60,747 nt of DNA from Enterobacteria phage JenK1, in the sequence record NC_029021.1, one strand, 5' to 3'. Shown here piece after piece: positions 3,762 to 55,821 of the stretch (positions are counted from its first letter, which is position 1; every line of letters begins with the position of its first letter). The notes under the pieces were generated by a model. The model had not been told where the DNA came from, ran no database searches, and was given only the letters and a program-made list of their open reading frames with translations. The translations under genes and the position numbers were made by a program.

Positions 3762-3789
3762 AGTGGAACGGTCCACAATGGAGAATTTT

Positions 3790-4668
3790 ATGAACAAATA
3801 TCACATTCATCTAGCGGTAGCTTATTCCGCTGGCTTCTTCCAGTCCATGCCTCGTTTTGGTGCATTGGAACTTGAATATACTTCTGAAGATGAAATCCCG
3901 GAAAACGCGCGTGAGTATTATTCCCAAGAAGGCGATAAGTGGATCCTCACTGGTGTAAAGGGTGGTGGCAAACAGAATATTGACAGGTTGCAATCTGCAC
4001 TTGAAAAAGAACGCAACGATCATAAAGCGGTCAAGAGTAAGCTAAGTAAGCTGAACGGACGTGATATTGACGAACTCTTGCAGCGCGACGCTGAATATGA
4101 AGAGCTTAAACTGCGTGCGGATAAAGTTGATGATGAAAAGTTGGAGCAAATCATTAACGTACGAATCCGTAACAAGTTGACTCCGCTTGAGCGTGAACGT
4201 GACGAGCTGAAAAACAAACTTTCTACCTATGAGAAGCAAGTAGAAGAGCTGACCACAAAAGAGAAGAACCGCATCGTTAAGACCGCTCTCAGCAAGGCTG
4301 CAATGTCTGCTAAAGTGATCACTGAAGCTATTGACGACGTGGAACTGATTGGCTCTCGTTTGTTTGAGCTCACTGAAGACGGTCAGGTTGTGACACGCGA
4401 CGGTGTGGGTGTAACTCCTGGGATCACCCCAGAAATGTGGTTACAGGACATCCAGGATAAGAAACCTCACTGGTTCCCTGGAAACGTTGGCGGTGGTGCT
4501 GGTGGCTCACGTACCCCTGGCGCTGCTGGTAAGAACCCGTGGAGTGCCGACGGTTGGAACCTTACTGAGCAGGGTAAAATTCTTCGTGAAAATCCTGAAA
4601 AAGCAGGCCGTCTGGCAGCCATGGCTGGCGTGGACTTGAAGCGTCCAGTACGTCCAGTTAAAAAATAA
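3790..4668 (+). CDS. scaffolding protein (putative)
   Basis: K/E-rich coiled-coil-like protein with Gly-rich C-terminal region, between portal and capsid genes. ATG at 3790 has a GGAG RBS; the ORF-track start at 3763 is a GTG just after the terminator. Confidence 0.5.
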   Translation: MNKYHIHLAVAYSAGFFQSMPRFGALELEYTSEDEIPENAREYYSQEGDKWILTGVKGGGKQNIDRLQSALEKERNDHKAVKSKLSKLNGRDIDELLQRDAEYEELKLRADKVDDEKLEQIINVRIRNKLTPLERERDELKNKLSTYEKQVEELTTKEKNRIVKTALSKAAMSAKVITEAIDDVELIGSRLFELTEDGQVVTRDGVGVTPGITPEMWLQDIQDKKPHWFPGNVGGGAGGSRTPGAAGKNPWSADGWNLTEQGKILRENPEKAGRLAAMAGVDLKRPVRPVKK

Positions 4669-4677
4669 TAAAATTTG

Positions 4678-4706
4678 TTGACACTCCCTCCGGTTGGTGT
4701 TAGTTT
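4678..4706 (+). promoter_or_regulatory. candidate sigma70-like promoter in capsid gene leader
   Basis: TTGACA (4678-4683), 17-bp spacer, weak -10 TAGTTT; followed by two overlapping hairpins. Confidence 0.25.
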
Positions 4707-4806
4707 TACATCAACCGGAGCACGGGCTCCGATCAATCAAGGATTATTGGAGCCTCCCACGGCGGTAGAGTTCCAAAGTAAATCGATTAACTTTGCGGAG
4801 ACTACC

Positions 4807-5910
4807 ATGTCTAAAATTCTGTCAGCTCCGATGCTTAATTTGCGAGCTACCAATTCAATTCTTCTGTCTGCTGTTCGTCGTGGTGCGATCACTGAACTTG
4901 CAGATGTTATCGTTCCAGAGATCTTCGTACCGTATGTGCAGAACCGCACAACTGAAAAGTCCCGACTGATTCAGTCTGGTGCTATTGAGATTTCTGAGCG
5001 TCTTAACGCTGCATTGATGGGTGAAGGTACTACCTTTAACCAGCGTTTCTTCAAAGACCTGGATCGTGACGAAGAAAACGTTTCAAGCGCAAGCGATGCA
5101 ACCGATTCTACTCCTGGTGGTATCAAATCTGGGCGTGAAATTCAGATCCGTCTGTCCCGTAACCATTCATGGGGTTCTGCGGACCTGCTGGACAGCCTGA
5201 TCTCCCCTGACCCGCTGGACGCTATCATTAACTTAGTGGCAAGCTACCGTCAGAGCCGTCTGCAACGTGCATTCGTTGCAACTGTAGGTGGTGTGTTCGC
5301 TATGAACGCCGCTGCTCCGGCTGGTTCCGGTGATAAGAAGTCTACTCACGTTCAGAACGATATGACCCACGACATTTCTGGTTCATCCTTCGTTGATGGT
5401 GTGACTAACTTCAACCCGGCTGGTGTTATCCTGGCGGCTGGTACTATGGGTGACTCCCTGAACGACCTGTCTATGATGATGGTTCACAGTGTGGTCTACC
5501 AGCGTATGCAGCTAATGAACCTGATCGACTTCATCCCAGATGCTCGTGCTGAAGTAATGATCCCGACCTACATGGGCCGTGAGGTTATCGTTGACGATAT
5601 GATGCCGCATGAAAGCGGTAAATACGAAACCTGGCTGGTTGGTCGTGGCGCATTCCAGTTAGGTGTTGGTTCACCGAAAGTTCCTGTTGAAACTGAACGT
5701 AAACCTGCATCCTACAAAGGTGGCGGTTCTGAAATCCTGTTCCACCGCTGGGAAAACATCATTCACCCTGTCGGTCACGCATGGGTTGGTACTGCTGCTG
5801 AAGGTGGTCCGGATAACGCCGCTCTGAAAACTGCTACCAACTGGGCTCGTGTATTCCCTGAGCGTAAACAGATTAAGATTGCTCGCCTGATCACTCGCGA
5901 ACACGCTTAA
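4807..5910 (+). CDS. major capsid protein
   Basis: 368 aa from ATG 4807 (ORF-track start 4675 is TTG inside the structured leader); strong host-like codon bias (ctg, cgt, ggt, aac); follows scaffold gene and ends at a terminator. Confidence 0.7.
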   Translation: MSKILSAPMLNLRATNSILLSAVRRGAITELADVIVPEIFVPYVQNRTTEKSRLIQSGAIEISERLNAALMGEGTTFNQRFFKDLDRDEENVSSASDATDSTPGGIKSGREIQIRLSRNHSWGSADLLDSLISPDPLDAIINLVASYRQSRLQRAFVATVGGVFAMNAAAPAGSGDKKSTHVQNDMTHDISGSSFVDGVTNFNPAGVILAAGTMGDSLNDLSMMMVHSVVYQRMQLMNLIDFIPDARAEVMIPTYMGREVIVDDMMPHESGKYETWLVGRGAFQLGVGSPKVPVETERKPASYKGGGSEILFHRWENIIHPVGHAWVGTAAEGGPDNAALKTATNWARVFPERKQIKIARLITREHA

Positions 5911-24099: not shown

Positions 24100-24813
24100 A
24101 TGTCTGACATGACTCTTATTCCGGGCGGTTTGGGTGGCGGTTTCGGTGGTGAAGCTGGCGCAGCGGCCGTTGGCGGTGGTATCGGTGGCTTAATCGGTTC
24201 GTGGATCGGAAATGGTTGGGGTGGCAATGTCGGTTGGGGTGGTCGCGGCGGTTGGGGTGGTGGTGTCGGTGAAGTCCAGGCTTCCGTAGATACTAACGCA
24301 ATTCTGCAAGCCATCAATAACGGCAACCTGCAAAACATCCAGGGCCAGAACGGTACTAACCTGACTGTCGAACGTTCTGCGGCGTCCACCTTCAACGGTA
24401 TTACTCAACAGAACACTCAGAACATGCTGGCTTCCGTTCAGGGCTTTGCTGGTCTGAACACTGAAATTCGCACTGGTACAGCGTCTGTCGTAGCTGCTGT
24501 CAATGCTGCGGATGTAAACGCGTTGAACCGTTCCTTCCAGGCTCAGTTAGCTGCTCAGGAATGTTGCTGCGAGACCAACCTGAACATCGAACGTCAAGCG
24601 AACGAAACCCGTGGCCTGATCCGCGATCAGTTTGCTCAGTCTCAGGCTGTTCTGATCTGTGATCTGAAATCTCAGTTGCAGGAAGCTCGCTTTGCGAACT
24701 CCCAGCTTCATCAGACCGCTCAGATCGATTGTAAGATCAATCAGGTTGCACAGCTCGTTAACTTCAAACTGCCAACCCCTCCGACTCCGCCGACTGGTTG
24801 TTGTGGTTGCTAA
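24100..24813 (+). CDS. Gly-rich N-terminal / Cys-containing hypothetical protein
   Basis: 237 aa; N-terminal 60 aa dominated by GG/GW repeats, Q/N-rich middle, CCC and C-terminal GCCGC; strong host-like codon bias; bracketed by terminators. Confidence 0.6.
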   Translation: MSDMTLIPGGLGGGFGGEAGAAAVGGGIGGLIGSWIGNGWGGNVGWGGRGGWGGGVGEVQASVDTNAILQAINNGNLQNIQGQNGTNLTVERSAASTFNGITQQNTQNMLASVQGFAGLNTEIRTGTASVVAAVNAADVNALNRSFQAQLAAQECCCETNLNIERQANETRGLIRDQFAQSQAVLICDLKSQLQEARFANSQLHQTAQIDCKINQVAQLVNFKLPTPPTPPTGCCGC

Positions 24814-33525: not shown

Positions 33526-34314
33526 TTACTCTACACCTAAATATTTATGAATCTGCAATTGCACGATGTAATTGTGCTTCATTGCATATTTAACGACAGC
33601 TTGAGCGTTTGCTTTATTAGCATCGTCGTCCTGTTCATCCATAGGTTGAAGATAAATCTTACCTTTAAAGTGTACAGGTGGGCGTGCAATAAATGGTGTC
33701 GCACGGTGATCCAGTGCCTGCAACGGTAATCCATCTTCCTCGTTGACGTTTCCGCTTTTCATTACATATTTGAAAGCATCCGCTCGAGCGGAAACGCTAG
33801 GGTGAACCTTTGCTGCCTTAGGACTACATACTACCACACAGTTATAGTTGAGTTCACGCGGGATAGGCATAGTTCCGTTAGTTTCGACCTGTACGCGATA
33901 ACCTTTCATATCAATAAGGTAATTGATAAAATTAGCAACTTCAGGTTGACGGAAAGGTTCGCCGCCAGTAATGACAACTAAGTTAGTCTTGGCTTCACCA
34001 GTAACACGGACAATCTCTTGCCAAATGTCACCGTGGTTCATCTTCTTACGATTGGATGTATAGTTTGTATCACATCCTGGGCATTGCAGATTACAACCAG
34101 CTAATCGAACAAATACGGCAGGTTGACCACAAAATGGGCCTTCGCCTTGAATGGTATGAAAAATGGAATGTACGTCAAGAATACCACGTTCACGAACTAA
34201 CTTCTCAGGTTCCTGAGTATTAATAATTTTCATATGATTTCCAAATTTGGCTTGAGCCCAGTGGTGGGCGATAATGGCTTGTGCAAACATTTGAACCTCG
34301 GGGTAAGATAACAA
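33526..34314 (-). CDS. queE: 7-carboxy-7-deazaguanine synthase (radical SAM)
   Basis: CNLQCPGC radical-SAM Cx3Cx2C-type motif; 262 aa. Confidence 0.85.
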   Translation of the reverse strand: MLSYPEVQMFAQAIIAHHWAQAKFGNHMKIINTQEPEKLVRERGILDVHSIFHTIQGEGPFCGQPAVFVRLAGCNLQCPGCDTNYTSNRKKMNHGDIWQEIVRVTGEAKTNLVVITGGEPFRQPEVANFINYLIDMKGYRVQVETNGTMPIPRELNYNCVVVCSPKAAKVHPSVSARADAFKYVMKSGNVNEEDGLPLQALDHRATPFIARPPVHFKGKIYLQPMDEQDDDANKANAQAVVKYAMKHNYIVQLQIHKYLGVE

Positions 34315-34358
34315 AGGGGCAGTAAATGCCCCTTCTGAGTTTCCGAAGTATCTACAGA

Positions 34359-35183
34359 TTACTCTGCAGTTTTCTGAGACGGAATTTCTACGTTAGCGGC
34401 CGCTTGTGCAATATTAGCAGGTACTGGAACGGATACGCGACCAGTAATGCCCATGTATTTTTTCCAGCGAGCGTATTCCGCTTTAACGTTCGCTTCGTTC
34501 AGGCCTTTGTCCAGTGCAACAGGCAGAACGTAGCTGATCGGTGCAGTCTGACCCAGCTCCATGGTGACAGCGTCAAAGATATCCCATGCAGCACGGCACA
34601 GAGTACCGACACCAGGCTTACGAATACCGTTCTGTTCAGGCTCTTTCTTAGCTTCGCGTTCTGCTGCTTTACGAGCACGCTCTTCGTCCTGCAGACGTTT
34701 CTTCTCAGCGCGTTGTGCGTCACGTTGAGCTTTTTCAGCGGCCTTAGTGGCTTCGCGGGCAGCGGATACACGACCTTTAACATCTTTCAGAGTGGATTCA
34801 ATGGAGGAAACCAGATCTTCAGATGCTGCAACGGCAGTTTTCAGCTGATCGTTGTCTTTAACTTTACGTGCTGCCGCTTTAACAGCTTTCAGACCTTCTT
34901 TAGCGGTCTTCAGTTGAGCGGTAACTACGCCTTCAACTGCTTTAACTTCGTCCAGCAATGAACCTTCGTTCAGGGTCGCGAACTGTTCTTTAACAGCGGA
35001 CATAGCACCTTCGATCACATTGTAACCGGCAGTGGCTTCGTTCATTGCGGCGTCAACTTTAGCCTGCAATTCACGTGCTGCTTTTTCTTCAGCTTCACGT
35101 TTTTTCTTTGCTTCAGCTTCTTTTGCTGCTTTCTTTGCTGCTTCTTCTGCTTCCAGTTGTTCTGGAGTTTTCTCTTTAGCCAT
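34359..35183 (-). CDS. highly charged coiled-coil protein, probably abundant
   Basis: 274 aa, K/E/A-rich N-terminus, globular C-terminus; very strong host-like codon bias; strong promoter immediately upstream. Confidence 0.6.
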   Translation of the reverse strand: MAKEKTPEQLEAEEAAKKAAKEAEAKKKREAEEKAARELQAKVDAAMNEATAGYNVIEGAMSAVKEQFATLNEGSLLDEVKAVEGVVTAQLKTAKEGLKAVKAAARKVKDNDQLKTAVAASEDLVSSIESTLKDVKGRVSAAREATKAAEKAQRDAQRAEKKRLQDEERARKAAEREAKKEPEQNGIRKPGVGTLCRAAWDIFDAVTMELGQTAPISYVLPVALDKGLNEANVKAEYARWKKYMGITGRVSVPVPANIAQAAANVEIPSQKTAE

Positions 35184-35238
35184 GATTTAAATCCTCACAG
35201 TGTGGTTATTGGTTGTGAACTACGTTCTAAGTGGTTGC

Positions 35239-35267
35239 ACTATAACCCCTCTAAAAGAACTATGCAA
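35239..35267 (-). promoter_or_regulatory. candidate sigma70 promoter
   Basis: Minus strand TTGCAT - 17 bp - TATAGT, then GAGGA RBS for the 34359-35183 gene. Confidence 0.4.
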
Positions 35268-35279
35268 TATTTTAATTAA

Positions 35280-36002
35280 TTAATTTAAGCCACGTTCTTT
35301 TACCCAGACCCCTAATGTATTACTTGATGTATTACGCTTCACACCTTGTGCCTCTAAACGATCCATCATTTGTTTTCTAAGCTGTAGGATTTCCTTCTTG
35401 TCACGAGGTTCACCAGCTTCTTTCCACATTTCGTCAGCAACAGCGAAAATAATATCGCGAGTGCCGGCTGTACGCGACGTTGCGGCACGTTTTTCGTTTG
35501 CCGGTGTGCTAGTACCTTGCCGCTCTCTTGTCGGTGTCCATGCCCCTTGTATGCCCATATTTGTTTGTACGGTTGGGCCGTCAATGATGGTGGATTCCAA
35601 TGAACTATCATTCCGTACTTGAATATTAGGCTCCTCCCCCAAATCTGGAACAGAGCTGCCTTCGCGGTACATGCACTCACCCTCTTTATTACTAGCAATT
35701 GCCCAGTCCGCTTGTTCAGCCACATCCGCATCTATTACTGTCTCCGGTATTTCATTTAAAAAGTAATGGATGATCTTACTGATCATTTTCTTTGGATATA
35801 AAGCACCTTGCTTATTACCCGTTAAGTTGATGTACAAAAGCTGCATTTGCACATCATCAAACTCTTTATACAGTTCTTCAACTTCTAACGGAAGAACTAC
35901 AGAACTTTCGCTACAGCATAGAATTCCATACTCATGAAGACGTTGGAAGTTTGGATGTTTGGCTAACACCTGCATCCGATCATAATCAATTAAGACGTAC
36001 AT
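35280..36002 (-). CDS. hypothetical protein
   Basis: 240-aa ORF downstream of helicase. Confidence 0.5.
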   Translation of the reverse strand: MYVLIDYDRMQVLAKHPNFQRLHEYGILCCSESSVVLPLEVEELYKEFDDVQMQLLYINLTGNKQGALYPKKMISKIIHYFLNEIPETVIDADVAEQADWAIASNKEGECMYREGSSVPDLGEEPNIQVRNDSSLESTIIDGPTVQTNMGIQGAWTPTRERQGTSTPANEKRAATSRTAGTRDIIFAVADEMWKEAGEPRDKKEILQLRKQMMDRLEAQGVKRNTSSNTLGVWVKERGLN

Positions 36003-36022: not shown

Positions 36023-38026
36023 TTAAAACGGTATGTCGTCATCAAAATCTGGTGGTAGTTCTTTACCGTTACCAGTAAGAATAGGTTGATTAGACGTAGA
36101 ATGCAATACTGTCGTACGGGAATCAGTCTGCTCATCTTCATCAAACTTATTCGTATAACTTCCACCAAACTGGGACAGACCATTCATTGCTGCAATTTGT
36201 ACAACAGGACGTTCGTTTGTTGCTTCTTTCTTACCGAACTCGCTACCGTCATAACAACTATTCAACACTTCAGGGAACTTACCCTTCAAGTTGACATATA
36301 TGTGCGTCGGTACACGAAGCTGGCTGACCACATTGAGAGCTTCGTCAATGTTAGCTGGGATTGCCAAGCTGCAATGCTCGCGCCACCAGTTACGCGCTTT
36401 CTTGCCCGCAAAGCCAGTATGGAACAGGCAGATATATTGTTGGATAGTCTGTGAGCCACAAAGATAGTCGACACGAAGTGTTGGTGGTTTAGAACGGTCG
36501 CCCCTGTTCTCGTGGCGGTAGTAACTTACCATATCAACTTTCAATACCTCAGTGACCGGTAAATCATTCTTGATAATAGCTTTCGTACTAGCACTCGCCA
36601 TTAGTTTCTTCTCAAAAGTAAACTCATGACCGCAATAACCAGCACGGCACGCTTTATTATTTGTAATGGTATAGCCTAATCCTTGTAGATAGAGTATTTC
36701 TTCATGCGACATGCTACTTGTGTCGAATGGTTTTAACCCACCACAGAATCGAACTGACGCATGGTTCCATGTTTTACATACCGGGCATTCTTTAACAGGT
36801 GCAGCGGACTTTCCTTTCTGCCCTGGGCGCTTAGGAATTACAGGGTCATTAATAGGCCCAAGGCGTCTTGTGTTACCTGCATAGTCCAATACAAGACAGT
36901 TCTGTTTATGCGAAGCGGAGATAGCTTGCAAACGACCCTCTGTTGTGGTCAAATCAAAACCATCTGCATAATCAGGTCGTGTACCACGTCCAAGCATCTG
37001 AACCCACAAACGGGAAGATTGAGATGGTCGCATACCAATTATCAAATCAAGCCCCGGATGGTCAAAGCCTGTCGTTAATACGTTGTTGTTTGCTATTGCC
37101 TGTAAACGACCAGCTTTAAAATCAATAAGATACTGGTCACGCAAGGCTTTCGGTGTATCACCAGTTACAACTTCACAACTAATACCGCGCTCGTTGAGGT
37201 AGTCTTTGACATCTTTTGCATGGTCTACACCAGCACAAAAGACAAGCCAACTCATTCTATTCTCTTCTTCCGCAATACTAATCGCATCATCTAATAAATG
37301 GCGAGTTACATCAGGATCGTTTACAACCTTTTGAAGTTCGCTTTCAATGAACTCACCGCCTCGAGTATGAACACCACTTACGTCATACTCTTTCTTTGTT
37401 TTACGTGGTACTAACGGAACAAGATAACCTTCATCAATGAACCAGTTGAAGCACTCTACGGTACACGCGTTAAATACGATTTCATCAAATAGAGCGTTAG
37501 GCGCATAATCATCTTTGATGATAGAACCAAAACCAAGACGCCAACTCGTAGCAGTAAGACCGATAATCTTTAGATATGGGTTCTTTTCACGAATGTGCGC
37601 AAAGAACTTCTGATAACTTGTTTGCTGATTTGGGCTAATAAGGTCACATTCGTCAACTATAATAATATCAACGTCCTCGAAGTATTTAGCTTGTTTTGCA
37701 ACAGACTGAATACCTGCGAACGTTATCATTGCATTCTTATCCTTGCGACCCATACCAGCACTATAAATACCAGTCGGTGCTTCAGGCCACAACTTCTTAA
37801 ATTTATCGTGGTTCTGGTCTATCAATTCTTTTACGTGAGTAATTACCATCATGCGGGTACTACCCCAATTATCGTGAATTGTCTTTAATAGACCAGCAAT
37901 TACAAGGGACTTACCAGTCCCTGTAGGCAACAAGATAACAGGATTTCCTGACTTTTCACCATACTTGATGAAATAGCGCAATGTACTGTTTACAGCTTCT
38001 TGCTGATAATCACGTAGTTTGAACAT
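36023..38026 (-). CDS. superfamily 2 DNA helicase with SSB-like C-terminal tip
   Basis: Walker A LLPTGTGKS, DECD box, Cys-rich region; extreme C-terminus PPDFDDDIPF matches the E. coli SSB C-terminal tip. Confidence 0.75.
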   Translation of the reverse strand: MFKLRDYQQEAVNSTLRYFIKYGEKSGNPVILLPTGTGKSLVIAGLLKTIHDNWGSTRMMVITHVKELIDQNHDKFKKLWPEAPTGIYSAGMGRKDKNAMITFAGIQSVAKQAKYFEDVDIIIVDECDLISPNQQTSYQKFFAHIREKNPYLKIIGLTATSWRLGFGSIIKDDYAPNALFDEIVFNACTVECFNWFIDEGYLVPLVPRKTKKEYDVSGVHTRGGEFIESELQKVVNDPDVTRHLLDDAISIAEEENRMSWLVFCAGVDHAKDVKDYLNERGISCEVVTGDTPKALRDQYLIDFKAGRLQAIANNNVLTTGFDHPGLDLIIGMRPSQSSRLWVQMLGRGTRPDYADGFDLTTTEGRLQAISASHKQNCLVLDYAGNTRRLGPINDPVIPKRPGQKGKSAAPVKECPVCKTWNHASVRFCGGLKPFDTSSMSHEEILYLQGLGYTITNNKACRAGYCGHEFTFEKKLMASASTKAIIKNDLPVTEVLKVDMVSYYRHENRGDRSKPPTLRVDYLCGSQTIQQYICLFHTGFAGKKARNWWREHCSLAIPANIDEALNVVSQLRVPTHIYVNLKGKFPEVLNSCYDGSEFGKKEATNERPVVQIAAMNGLSQFGGSYTNKFDEDEQTDSRTTVLHSTSNQPILTGNGKELPPDFDDDIPF

Positions 38027-39039: not shown

Positions 39040-39963
39040 TTACTGTGCAGCGTCATCGCCTTCAGTGGAACGTTTCCACGGTGGAGTCTTGGTCTGAGCT
39101 GCTTTAGCGATATCGTCCTGGACTTCAGGTTCTGCATGGTTAGCAGTACCAGTGTTCTGAGCCTGAGTTTGCGGTTGCTCTGCTCCAGGTTGTACCTGCT
39201 GAGTTGCCCAGTTAGGTTGCTGTGTGGTTTGTTGCTGCGGCTGCTGCGCACCAGTAGCCCACGGTTGAGATTGCGCCGCACTGTTAAAATCAACTGTTCC
39301 AGACTGCTGCTGTTGCTGTACCGGCTGCTGCGGCTGTTGTTGCTGCTGCGGTTGCTGGAACCCCTGAGTCTGAGGTTGTTGCTGCTGTTGCTGCGGCTGC
39401 TGCCCAAATGCGCCCGGGAAACCCTGCTGCTGCGGTTGCTGCTGTTGTTGCTGAGCACCACCGAACGCACCGCCACCAAATGCTGGAGATTGTGCTGCCG
39501 CTGCCGGAGTTGATTTAGGCAGGTTAGCCATATCCGCCTTAGTTGCGTATACAACACCTTCCATGTTATCAATTGCTTGATAAATCTGAGGTTCGTTGTT
39601 TGGCTCATAGCCAGGTTGTTGACGAACTTTCACTTTCAGGTTAAACGGAATACCGTGCAGTTGTTCAGTATCGTTCCAAACTGGAACTTTAACAGCACGG
39701 GACAGCTCTGCCAGTTCTTCCATTGCAATCTGTACAGCGACAGGGTTCGCGTTCTTGACGTTGTAACCGCCAAACATCACACGACCAGCAAAATCACCCT
39801 GCATAATCTTAAACTGAAGATTCAGACGCGCACCGCCTGGAGTTTTAGTCGGTTTGATTTCAGAGTTTACAATCTGAACAACATACCAACCAGCGGGCAT
39901 CAAGCTGTTGTGTTGACGCTCTGCGTGCTGTCCAGCGTTAAATTGCATTCCTAAACCGGCCAT
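39040..39963 (-). CDS. putative ssDNA-binding / annealing protein with Gln-rich linker
   Basis: Folded N-terminal 150 aa, then roughly 100 aa of poly-Q/P low complexity and acidic C-terminus; adjacent to Sak4-like ATPase. Confidence 0.45.
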   Translation of the reverse strand: MAGLGMQFNAGQHAERQHNSLMPAGWYVVQIVNSEIKPTKTPGGARLNLQFKIMQGDFAGRVMFGGYNVKNANPVAVQIAMEELAELSRAVKVPVWNDTEQLHGIPFNLKVKVRQQPGYEPNNEPQIYQAIDNMEGVVYATKADMANLPKSTPAAAAQSPAFGGGAFGGAQQQQQQPQQQGFPGAFGQQPQQQQQQPQTQGFQQPQQQQQPQQPVQQQQQSGTVDFNSAAQSQPWATGAQQPQQQTTQQPNWATQQVQPGAEQPQTQAQNTGTANHAEPEVQDDIAKAAQTKTPPWKRSTEGDDAAQ

Positions 39964-40709: not shown

Positions 40710-40773
40710 ATGTTGTTCCTTGTGTGGTTACGGTTGCAATACTAGGACCTAATTAACCTGAATGCAAACGTGA

Positions 40774-54774: not shown

Positions 54775-55269
54775 TTAGTTACCCCCTTTATTATTGAGCC
54801 CGTTGAATTTACGCCATGCGTAGAATTCAATCGTTGCATTATTAATATTCCAACCATTAGCTTTCGCAAGGTCACGGACGTTACCAATAGTTGGCACACT
54901 ATCAGGTAACATATTATCCAGGGCATTCCAAACGTCTGCGCATTTACCTTTAATTGGGCGGCGGACCCCGTTGCGCGTTTCGCTGCGCGTTTTGCTCTTG
55001 GCGGGAGCGACCGGAGCTTGTTGTGTGGTCACTTCCACGACAGTCGCTTTATCAGCTTCAACCAGATCGTTAGCTGCCTTGTTAACCGCGCTTTCGCTGT
55101 ACCAGTAGCGGCCACCGTCTTCTTGCGGTTCCTGGTGAATAAAGCTATTAGCTGTCGCAGTGTCCACATCCAGAACCTTTTTTAAGGCACGGCGAGCGTT
55201 AGACATATTGGTGAAGAAGCGAGCATCTTTTGCTACGCGAGTGATAGTAACCATTGTGAATATCTCCAT
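54775..55269 (-). CDS. hypothetical protein
   Basis: 164 aa; N-terminal TITRVAKDA loosely resembles paralog family A; preceded by second copy of the palindromic element. Confidence 0.5.
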   Translation of the reverse strand: MEIFTMVTITRVAKDARFFTNMSNARRALKKVLDVDTATANSFIHQEPQEDGGRYWYSESAVNKAANDLVEADKATVVEVTTQQAPVAPAKSKTRSETRNGVRRPIKGKCADVWNALDNMLPDSVPTIGNVRDLAKANGWNINNATIEFYAWRKFNGLNNKGGN

Positions 55270-55636: not shown

Positions 55637-55821
55637 AATGCAATCTCCCTTCGGGTGAAGCGGGCGCGGAACCCGTGTCCCGCTTTAAAACCCCCTTTAC
55701 CCCACGCGTTTATAGTATGACAACAGGGTATCAGATGCAACTATTATCTGCATTATTTTAGAACTTTTTTAGTTGTGTTTCATAATAATAACATCCGGGA
55801 CTATACGGTAGATGGTGTGCC

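Follow-up and report, generated by a model that had tools for sequence, protein, structure and literature searches.

Several described systems join a helical region to a small nucleic-acid-binding domain, or are abundant DNA-binding proteins that a phage makes for itself. Proteins of the H-NS type (H-NS/StpA, MvaT, Lsr2 and their phage relatives) are abundant and have an N-terminal helical coiled coil followed by a small basic C-terminal domain, and KfrA of the IncP plasmids consists of a winged-helix DNA-binding domain and an alanine-rich coiled coil. The D5 protein of the E. coli siphovirus T5 is an abundant early DNA-binding protein that is required for replication and for late transcription. 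TF1 of phage SPO1, a phage with hypermodified DNA, is an abundant protein of the HU family with a preference for the modified DNA of its own phage. Here we describe a gene of Enterobacteria phage JenK1 (sequence record NC_029021.1; the whole stretch of 60,747 nt that was analyzed is called the window below), which lies between a helicase gene and the 7-deazaguanine modification gene queE. It encodes a protein of 274 amino acids (aa) that is rich in alanine, lysine and glutamate and ends in a domain of about 65 aa that we call X. We tentatively read this protein as an architectural one that is abundant, binds nucleic acids and belongs to the replication module, similar in layout to H-NS and KfrA and in lifestyle to T5 D5, a reading that we favor while considering it to fall somewhat short of probable. 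The new results are a definition of the X domain and the recognition of a conserved set of three genes that carry it.

Codon bias and expression signals

A preliminary description of this DNA had proposed a 274-aa, A/K/E-rich protein with extreme host-like codon bias, and we find that the open reading frame (ORF) is real and that the bias holds. The product contains 20.1% alanine, 12.4% lysine and 12.4% glutamate, with 49 K+R against 45 D+E residues (net charge +4, isoelectric point 8.9). Using the E. coli weights of Sharp and Li (1987), the codon adaptation index (CAI) of the gene is 0.627, the highest among the 75 ORFs of the window. As lysine and glutamate codons could inflate the index in an AT-rich phage, we applied a control that is conditioned on amino-acid composition and takes the rest of the genome as reference. 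The gene then has a z-score of 7.4, and only the major capsid (head) gene stands above it (z = 8.4). Its CAI is still the first when K, E and A are ignored (0.598); 14 of its 16 leucine codons are CTG, against 19% in the rest of the genome, and its arginine codons are CGT or CGC in 15 out of 15 cases. The adjoining genes have indices of 0.24–0.35. The same excess is seen in three other genera, in the orthologs of Vid5 (0.54), Seurat (0.56) and Klebsiella phage K9PH25C2 (0.65), whose neighbors lie at 0.21–0.38, and this despite an identity to the JenK1 protein of only ~50–60%. The other ORFs at the top of the window are the genes for a 237-aa protein, the major head protein, a tail protein and a single-stranded DNA-binding protein (SSB) of the DUF669 type. 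The first of these (24100–24813, plus strand; phrog_9288, unknown function) has the second highest CAI in the window, 0.566, with z = 6.9, and is probably another very abundant protein.

The preliminary description also reported a near-consensus promoter in front of the gene. The string TTGCAT-N17-TATAGT is present (Table 1), and we take it to be real because its layout is conserved around the orthologs, but "near-consensus" overstated the case: it agrees with the sigma-70 consensus at 3/6 and 5/6 positions, 8/12 overall, and a consensus promoter scan of the window did not list it. The layout TTGC(A/G)N-N17-TAnnnT is found in five genera; it stands upstream of the ortholog in Klebsiella, Pantoea, Pseudomonas and Seurat-type phages, where the spacers are unrelated. 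Among 65 non-identical ortholog flanks from IMG/VR, TTGNNN-N16–18-TANNNT occurs within 120 nt in 52 upstream regions, compared with 7% of random windows, and the narrower TTGCNN-N17-TANNNT occurs in 38, compared with 1.9%. In the window itself TTGCAT-N17-TANNNT is found five times against 1.05 expected, and three of these sites are intergenic and on the early strand (35267, 40767 and 55740).

The two further intergenic sites lie at 40739–40767 and 55712–55740 on the minus strand. The one before the gene for an AAA_24 ATPase has in common with the site studied here the GCAACC after the −10 element and the leader octamer AACCACAC, which suggests that the two may belong to a common promoter class. 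In the whole window the octamer has 11 copies against 2.5 expected, a number reached by none of 100 shuffles, and these copies are scattered over both strands and mostly lie within genes.

Downstream of the gene, a hairpin resembling an intrinsic terminator separates it from queE. A terminator is annotated in the related phage HdK1, the position is conserved in relatives although the stems are different, and a downstream hairpin of −10 kcal/mol or stronger is present in 64 of the 65 orthologs. The conserved promoter-like site and the conserved hairpin together make the gene a conserved self-contained transcription unit. Judged from its codon usage and these signals, the gene is apparently very highly expressed, and the abundance suggested in the preliminary description is well, if indirectly, supported by a capsid-level codon bias that is kept in other genera and by a conserved private promoter and terminator. 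We found no repeated or operator-like DNA sites near the gene, where the only repeat is the 24-nt periodicity of the sequence coding for A, K and E. An initiator that binds an origin or iterons was also considered and rejected, as no supporting repeats lie near the gene.

A predicted helical bundle followed by domain X

Structure prediction, which the preliminary description had proposed as a check, was run with AlphaFold2 on an alignment of 90 sequences. The model has a mean predicted local distance difference test score of 92.7 (blocks of 95–98 over residues 11–160, 94 over 161–170 and 87 over 171–180) and shows a long three-helix bundle, then a C-terminal domain made of a beta-hairpin and three helices. 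Residues 1–178 form this bundle, in which the helices run antiparallel and two of them make up a charged stalk. In X, the beta-hairpin spans residues ~182–188 and the helices residues 195–210, 216–225 and 230–243.

The two parts differ in their conservation. The length of the N-terminal region varies among relatives from ~35 aa in phages of Stenotrophomonas and Microcystis, over ~90 aa of plain A/K/E helix in Pseudomonas phages, to the ~180 aa seen here. The C-terminal ~65 aa, on the other hand, are strongly conserved as PEQNG(I/V)RRP...C..W...D...G.P...G.N..N...EY..W(R/K)KF.G..GR. N185, P190, W200, D204, W240 and K242 are nearly invariant, and helix 3 is near-invariant across phages of alpha-, beta- and gamma-proteobacteria and of cyanobacteria. 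X has an isoelectric point of 9.2, with conserved basic positions at 188, 189, 234, 239, 241, 242 and 249, and basic conservation concentrates at the hairpin exit (RRP), at the end of helix 3 (RWRKF) and in the GR that follows.

The JenK1 protein carries the motif that defines the X family, N-G-x-x-x-P ... W-x3-D ... G-x-N ... Y-x2-W-(R/K)-K-F. A profile search of 1.84 billion representative proteins recovered 2,477 clusters of this family at E ≤1e-3 and 1,585 at E ≤1e-10, and the family overlaps PHROGs 18634, 21588, 22313 and 17772. Nearly all of its members come from phages: when 185,579 species were scanned, each by one genome, 10 loci were found, mostly phage-like contigs in metagenome-assembled genomes or short contaminant contigs, with three in larger bacterial contigs.

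Some of these loci deserve a comment of their own. The chromosome of Roseateles asaccharophilus (L106, 7749–8258) has a paralog in which an N-domain of a type that we call SNARRA precedes X; it adjoins gyrB and dnaN, with a 296-aa ORF and the gene for a 631-aa P-loop protein beside it, and this locus may be a small mobile or defense island. In Pelomonas sp. V22 (L105) the match lies within a 431-kb contig. Fragments in Sulfoacidibacillus thermotolerans contig60 (L097, 2.9 kb) and in a Dyella japonica contig (L104, 329 bp) are 95% and 100% identical, respectively, to X sequences of the query alignment and most likely represent phage contamination of bacterial assemblies.

X is also a modular domain. 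Two or three copies stand in tandem in the proteins P0203, P0257, P0204, P0205, P0210 and P0232, and some of these proteins, among them P0203 with its three X domains and P0257, contain no other recognized domain. A scan of viral contigs found no relatives of the triple-domain P0257. In P0160 a bona fide Rho_N/SAP domain precedes X, and P0237, P0245, P0253 and P0297 each join the N-domain of the upstream neighbor described below to a charged helix and X; for P0245 the fusion was confirmed to lie at the same syntenic position. Such modularity, with tandem copies and a Rho_N/SAP fusion, would be typical of nucleic-acid binders.

Searches for known families identified no relative of described function. 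The JenK1 protein has no match in Pfam up to E = 10 and none among the NCBIfam families, and PADLOC, NCBIfam and Pfam together returned only low-complexity or sub-threshold matches for it and its relatives. In sequence searches of the PDB with the protein, two domain profiles and two paralogs, nothing was found at E <0.1. Foldseek comparison of the full model with the PDB gave only generic or designed helical bundles, all at E >0.1, and BFVD gave only uncharacterized phage relatives. The sub-threshold Pfam matches, present in a few X-family members, are to HNH_repeat and RecX_HTH1. We rejected HNH_repeat (PF18780) as an identity, since its best full-length score is 16.9 bits against a gathering threshold of 26 bits and the JenK1 protein itself has no match; among 37 isolated X domains two match, the best at E 8.6e-4. 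An activator of the FtrA/AraC type was rejected as well, with no NCBIfam family for the protein, only low-complexity noise in its relatives and no Pfam match, and the labels "transcriptional activator" and "FtrA domain" that GenBank gives to some orthologs were not reproducible.

Paralogs and a conserved set of three genes

Two further genes of the window carry X. The protein encoded directly upstream does not match the 274-aa protein in a direct BLASTP comparison, and its match to the X-family hidden Markov model (HMM) is only at E 0.17. When the family was aligned by hhalign to the C-termini of 50 homologs of this neighbor, the probability was 96.2% (E 2.7e-9, 55 columns), and from this profile–profile match we conclude that the neighbor carries a diverged X. 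The other paralog, with a clear X, sits among the small genes of the early region.

In distant relatives (L107, L108, L111, L112 and L113) three consecutive genes that end in X lie between the helicase gene and queE. The first has an N-domain with the sequence SNA(L/R)RA, comparable to the early paralog of the window; the second has a YMLID N-domain, comparable to the upstream neighbor; and the third has a short charged N-terminus, a QNGxxRP hairpin and X, comparable to the 274-aa protein. The window retains all three types, and these triads lead us to regard the 274-aa protein as the third, highly expressed member of an ancestral triad. In phage PaMx25 a second X copy (gp45) is found two genes upstream of the homolog of the neighbor. 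In two of the triads (L107, 8674–9291; L108, 6036–6932) the first gene has a four-cysteine motif (CPHCG...CLAC/CLSC) inserted between its N-domain and X, and this insert looks like a putative zinc ribbon.

The surroundings of the gene are constant. Among 80 loci from IMG/VR, a helicase gene lies 3.5–4 kb upstream in 76 and queE lies immediately downstream in 78, the other two being truncated, while the genes for DpdA, clamp and polymerase come next in all loci whose sequence reaches that far. The gene order is the same in GenBank phages of Stenotrophomonas, Rhizobium and Microcystis. The triple-X protein P0203 is encoded in a locus (L009) that reads helicase, P0203, a 78-aa ORF, a DpdA-like gene, clamp and PolA, with no preQ0 genes, so that P0203 occupies the slot that is filled by the three-gene array in the distant relatives. 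In the short contig that encodes P0257 (L010), a 91-aa ORF and then the clamp gene lie downstream, with no DpdA in between. Replication genes flank the X gene in all loci examined, including those where the preQ0 genes are missing.

The window belongs to a Nonagvirus (a coliphage like 9g and JenP1), and the 1.2 kb around the gene are 96–99% identical in DNA sequence to 16 Nonagvirus records (9g, JenP1, JenP2, HdK1, ChristophMerian, FritzHoffmann, SE1 and others), in all of which the gene is labeled "hypothetical". It is a homolog of 9g_00009 and a full-length profile match to PHROG 11298, a family of unknown function (E 2e-131, residues 1–274). The 9g paper places the region in an early or early/middle transcription unit and gives the gene no function, and we found no functional study of the gene in the literature, including the 9g, Vid5, R7M and EC151 papers and a retron paper that mentions BASEL phages.

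The gene shares its strand with the genes for replication and nucleotide metabolism. The order there is helicase of superfamily 2 (SF2; 36023..38026), upstream neighbor, the gene itself, terminator, queE, an ORF of unknown function, Gat-queC and queD (Table 1). Its placement next to the modification cluster, as the preliminary description had it, is therefore correct. Beyond queD, the HdK1 record continues with folE, a queuine tRNA-ribosyltransferase-like (DpdA) gene, clamp and polymerase. In the same record (L001, MK373794, 9205–9463) the copy of the gene matches as two abutting pieces with a frame shift, which explains its annotation there as a truncated 233-aa protein; this may be a sequencing error or a real frameshift.

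The helicase ORF of the window ends in ...PPDFDDDIPF (36026–36049, minus strand). The SSB of E. coli has this peptide, DFDDDIPF, at its own C-terminal tip, which suggests that the phage helicase could dock on host proteins that recognize the SSB tail.

Table 1. Features of the JenK1 window around the 274-aa gene and its paralogs (positions are those of the window).
Feature	Position	Strand	Description
Coding sequence of the 274-aa protein	34359..35183	−	274 aa + stop; PHROG 11298
N-terminal A/K/E-rich helical region	34650..35183	−	aa 1–178; AlphaFold2 helices 7–68, 77–107, 112–178
C-terminal domain X	34434..34643	−	aa 181–250; beta-hairpin PEQNGIRKP + three short helices
C-terminal tail	34362..34433	−	aa 251–274; A/P-rich, variable; low-confidence prediction
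Promoter-like site	35239..35267	−	TTGCAT 35267–35262, 17-nt spacer, TATAGT 35244–35239
A/T-rich tract	~35268–35290	−	just upstream of −35 element; GCAACC just downstream of TATAGT
5′ leader	35184..35238	−	Shine-Dalgarno GAGG 35196–35193, 9 nt before ATG; AACCACAC at 35207–35200
Hairpin resembling an intrinsic terminator	34313..34335	−	GAAGGGGCATTTACTGCCCCTTT then T-rich run; between the 274-aa gene and queE
queE	33526..34314	−	downstream of the 274-aa gene
Upstream neighbor	35280..36002	−	240 aa; PHROG 7864; N-domain 'MYVLIDYDRM...', linker, diverged X (~35289–35477)
Early-region paralog	54775..55269	−	164 aa; PHROG 17772; 'SNARRA' N-domain, clear X (~54787–54984), HMM E 2e-25

Possible functions of the protein

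The preliminary description had named a DNA-binding or nucleoid-remodeling factor among the possible roles, a reasonable guess in our view. We too tentatively favor an architectural role, and suggest that the 274-aa protein could work as follows. The private sigma-70-type promoter, the good ribosome-binding site, the host-optimal codons and the private terminator would make the gene a high-output transcription unit, and its product would be an abundant early or middle, non-virion protein of the replication module. The A/K/E-rich helical bundle, being of variable length, would probably serve as a spacer or an oligomerization module, while X would bind nucleic acids, most likely double-stranded DNA and without sequence specificity. 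Acting stoichiometrically, the protein would coat, bridge or organize the replicating phage DNA as a nucleoid-associated or "phage chromatin" protein, and the other two members of the triad, with their different N-domains, could be drawn there as well through the X domains that they carry. We favor this reading because of the structural-level expression signals, the basic hairpin and three-helix build of X, the tandem chains that consist of X only, the SAP-type fusion, the variable helical region, the triad and the constant place of the gene in the replication block. That the virion proteome papers on Vid5 and R7M leave the ortholog unnamed in their main texts agrees with a non-virion protein.

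Several points weigh against it. We infer all three of its elements, the abundance (from codon usage and signals), the nucleic-acid binding and the architectural role. The conserved residues W200, W240, Y237, F243, D204, N185-G186 and P190 may simply form the core of the fold, and the near-invariance of helix 3 across host groups would also fit a conserved protein partner. The diverged X of the upstream neighbor is without the hairpin and most of the basic motif, and no repeated DNA sites lie near the gene.

The main rival to nucleic-acid binding is that X is a protein–protein docking domain, through which the three X proteins are recruited to one replication or recombination hub (the SF2 helicase, the clamp, or a Sak4-like ATPase with SSB) or are joined to each other, with the 274-aa protein as an abundant scaffold or adaptor. 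We regard this as unlikely, while giving it real weight. It accounts for the presence of X in three proteins with different N-domains directly after the helicase gene, for the recurrence of the neighbor's N-domain, fused to a charged helix and X, in several unrelated sequences, and for the constancy of helix 3, as expected if the phages themselves carry the conserved partner; protein-binding winged helices are moreover among the fold matches. P0203, on the other hand, would be hard to explain if X only delivered cargo, capsid-level abundance would be unusual for an adaptor to enzymes that are far scarcer, to judge by the indices of the neighboring genes, and a polyanionic ligand is suggested by the conserved basic patch and by the fusion to Rho_N/SAP.

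Alternatively, the protein could be a transcription factor that binds promoters or RNA polymerase and switches on the middle or late genes, which we find improbable. The orthologs of Vid5, R7M, BA3 and others bear such labels, irreproducible as these are, a helix-turn-helix-like fold would be compatible, and one paralog is encoded in the region of small genes on the early strand, downstream of the TTGCAT-type promoter-like site at 55740; the 9g paper also calls the switch from early to late expression unexplained. Against this, no transcription-factor family of Pfam or NCBIfam matched at any useful threshold, regulators are rarely the most codon-optimized gene of a phage, and the operator-like repeats that such a factor would use were not found nearby. 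A sequence-specific recognition helix would, in addition, not stay near-invariant across hosts of several phyla.

To the same degree improbable, in our judgment, is a role as an accessory to, or reader of, the 7-deazaguanine modification, in which the protein presents DNA to DpdA or prefers to coat modified DNA, in the manner of SPO1 TF1 on hydroxymethyluracil DNA. The position immediately upstream of queE in IMG/VR and in the GenBank phages speaks for it, as does DpdA, which is present in every context long enough to judge and, as a DpdA-like gene, lies two genes downstream even in the locus without preQ0 genes. All these phages, however, form one clade with a common replication block, and the co-occurrence is perhaps inherited; the gene has its own promoter and is separated from queE by a terminator; and the three-X protein of L010 is followed by the 91-aa ORF and the clamp with no DpdA between them, in a contig that is short. 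DpdA phages of other lineages, such as Dp-1 and Rosebush, are not known to have an X module. The preliminary description had proposed a scaffold for the replication and modification machinery, and the part of this that ties the protein specifically to modification finds no support here: its constant neighbors are the helicase upstream and the replication genes, one relative has no preQ0 genes beside its DpdA-like gene and clamp, and another adjoins the clamp on a short contig.

We also consider a bolder combination of these ideas, and think it very unlikely: that X represents a novel fold for binding nucleic acids and recognizes the DNA of its own phage by the 7-deazaguanine modification, and that the 274-aa protein is a dedicated "chromatin" coating the modified genomes. 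If true, it might mark the genomes as self for the two partner X proteins or protect them against nucleases directed at hypermodified DNA, and it would play the part of SPO1 TF1 with a wholly different domain.

A capsid scaffold or an SSB, the classic abundant non-virion phage proteins, is barely credible. In favor of it are the helical, charged and elongated build, the probable abundance, the absence of the ortholog's name from the main texts on the Vid5 and R7M virion proteomes, and weak low-complexity matches of relatives to a siphophage capsid model. Both roles, however, are filled by other genes. In the head module a scaffold is encoded at 3763..4668 (phrog_206, E 2.5e-50), immediately ahead of the major head gene (4675..5910), ~29 kb away and on the other strand, and the SSB is the DUF669 protein (39040..39963; phrog_6015, E 1.8e-99). 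The gene of the 274-aa protein, moreover, is placed among the replication genes of the early strand, at a great distance from those for the head, and the AlphaFold2 model of its product shows no oligonucleotide/oligosaccharide-binding (OB) fold.

Judged by its codons, this gene is the one most strongly expressed in an entire subfamily of coliphages (Queuovirinae and relatives on Pseudomonas, Vibrio, Rhizobium, Stenotrophomonas and Microcystis), which includes phages of the BASEL collection that are used as models, and yet it lacks a name, a Pfam family and a relative of solved structure. The definition of X, the presence of three X proteins in this phage and the retention of the trio between the helicase and the modification genes make it a concrete and cheap target for experiments. 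Should the protein indeed coat the DNA of the phage, it would represent a new kind of phage-encoded nucleoid protein, with possible consequences for the replication and packaging of hypermodified genomes and for their concealment from host defenses; if X binds a protein hub, it would be the recruitment domain of a widespread replication module.

Comparison with known systems

The likeness to SPO1 TF1 is one of concept only, in that both would be abundant DNA-binding proteins of phages with hypermodified DNA; TF1 has no similarity to our candidate in sequence or fold, and a preference of the latter for modified DNA is pure conjecture. With proteins of the H-NS type it would have in common an N-terminal helical region, a small basic C-terminal domain and, as far as codon usage and signals indicate, abundance. 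The conserved G-x-x-G-R after X presumably recalls the Q/RGR minor-groove motif of H-NS as a resemblance only, and the GR is missing in distant X members. An identity with the family was rejected: the sequences are unrelated, with neither Histone_HNS nor any other Pfam family matching up to E = 10, and the predicted fold of X, a hairpin and three helices, differs.

KfrA resembles the 274-aa protein in having a three-helix domain and a long Ala/Lys/Glu-rich helix, and the helix pattern of X, with helix 1 ending in G-x-P and W-R/K-K in helix 3, looks similar by eye to what we take to be that of KfrA. There is no Pfam match to KfrA_N (PF11740), the order of the domains is reversed, with the helical region first in the phage protein, and the gene belongs to a phage replication module rather than to plasmid partition, which is why this identity was rejected too. 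A homolog of T5 D5 was likewise rejected (BLASTP E 21, hhalign probability 1.4%), and D5 is without the long charged helical bundle. In lifestyle, on the other hand, D5 offers a close parallel: T5 is also an E. coli siphovirus, and its 255-aa protein, like the 274-aa protein of JenK1, is early, is encoded among the replication genes and is built with small helical modules.

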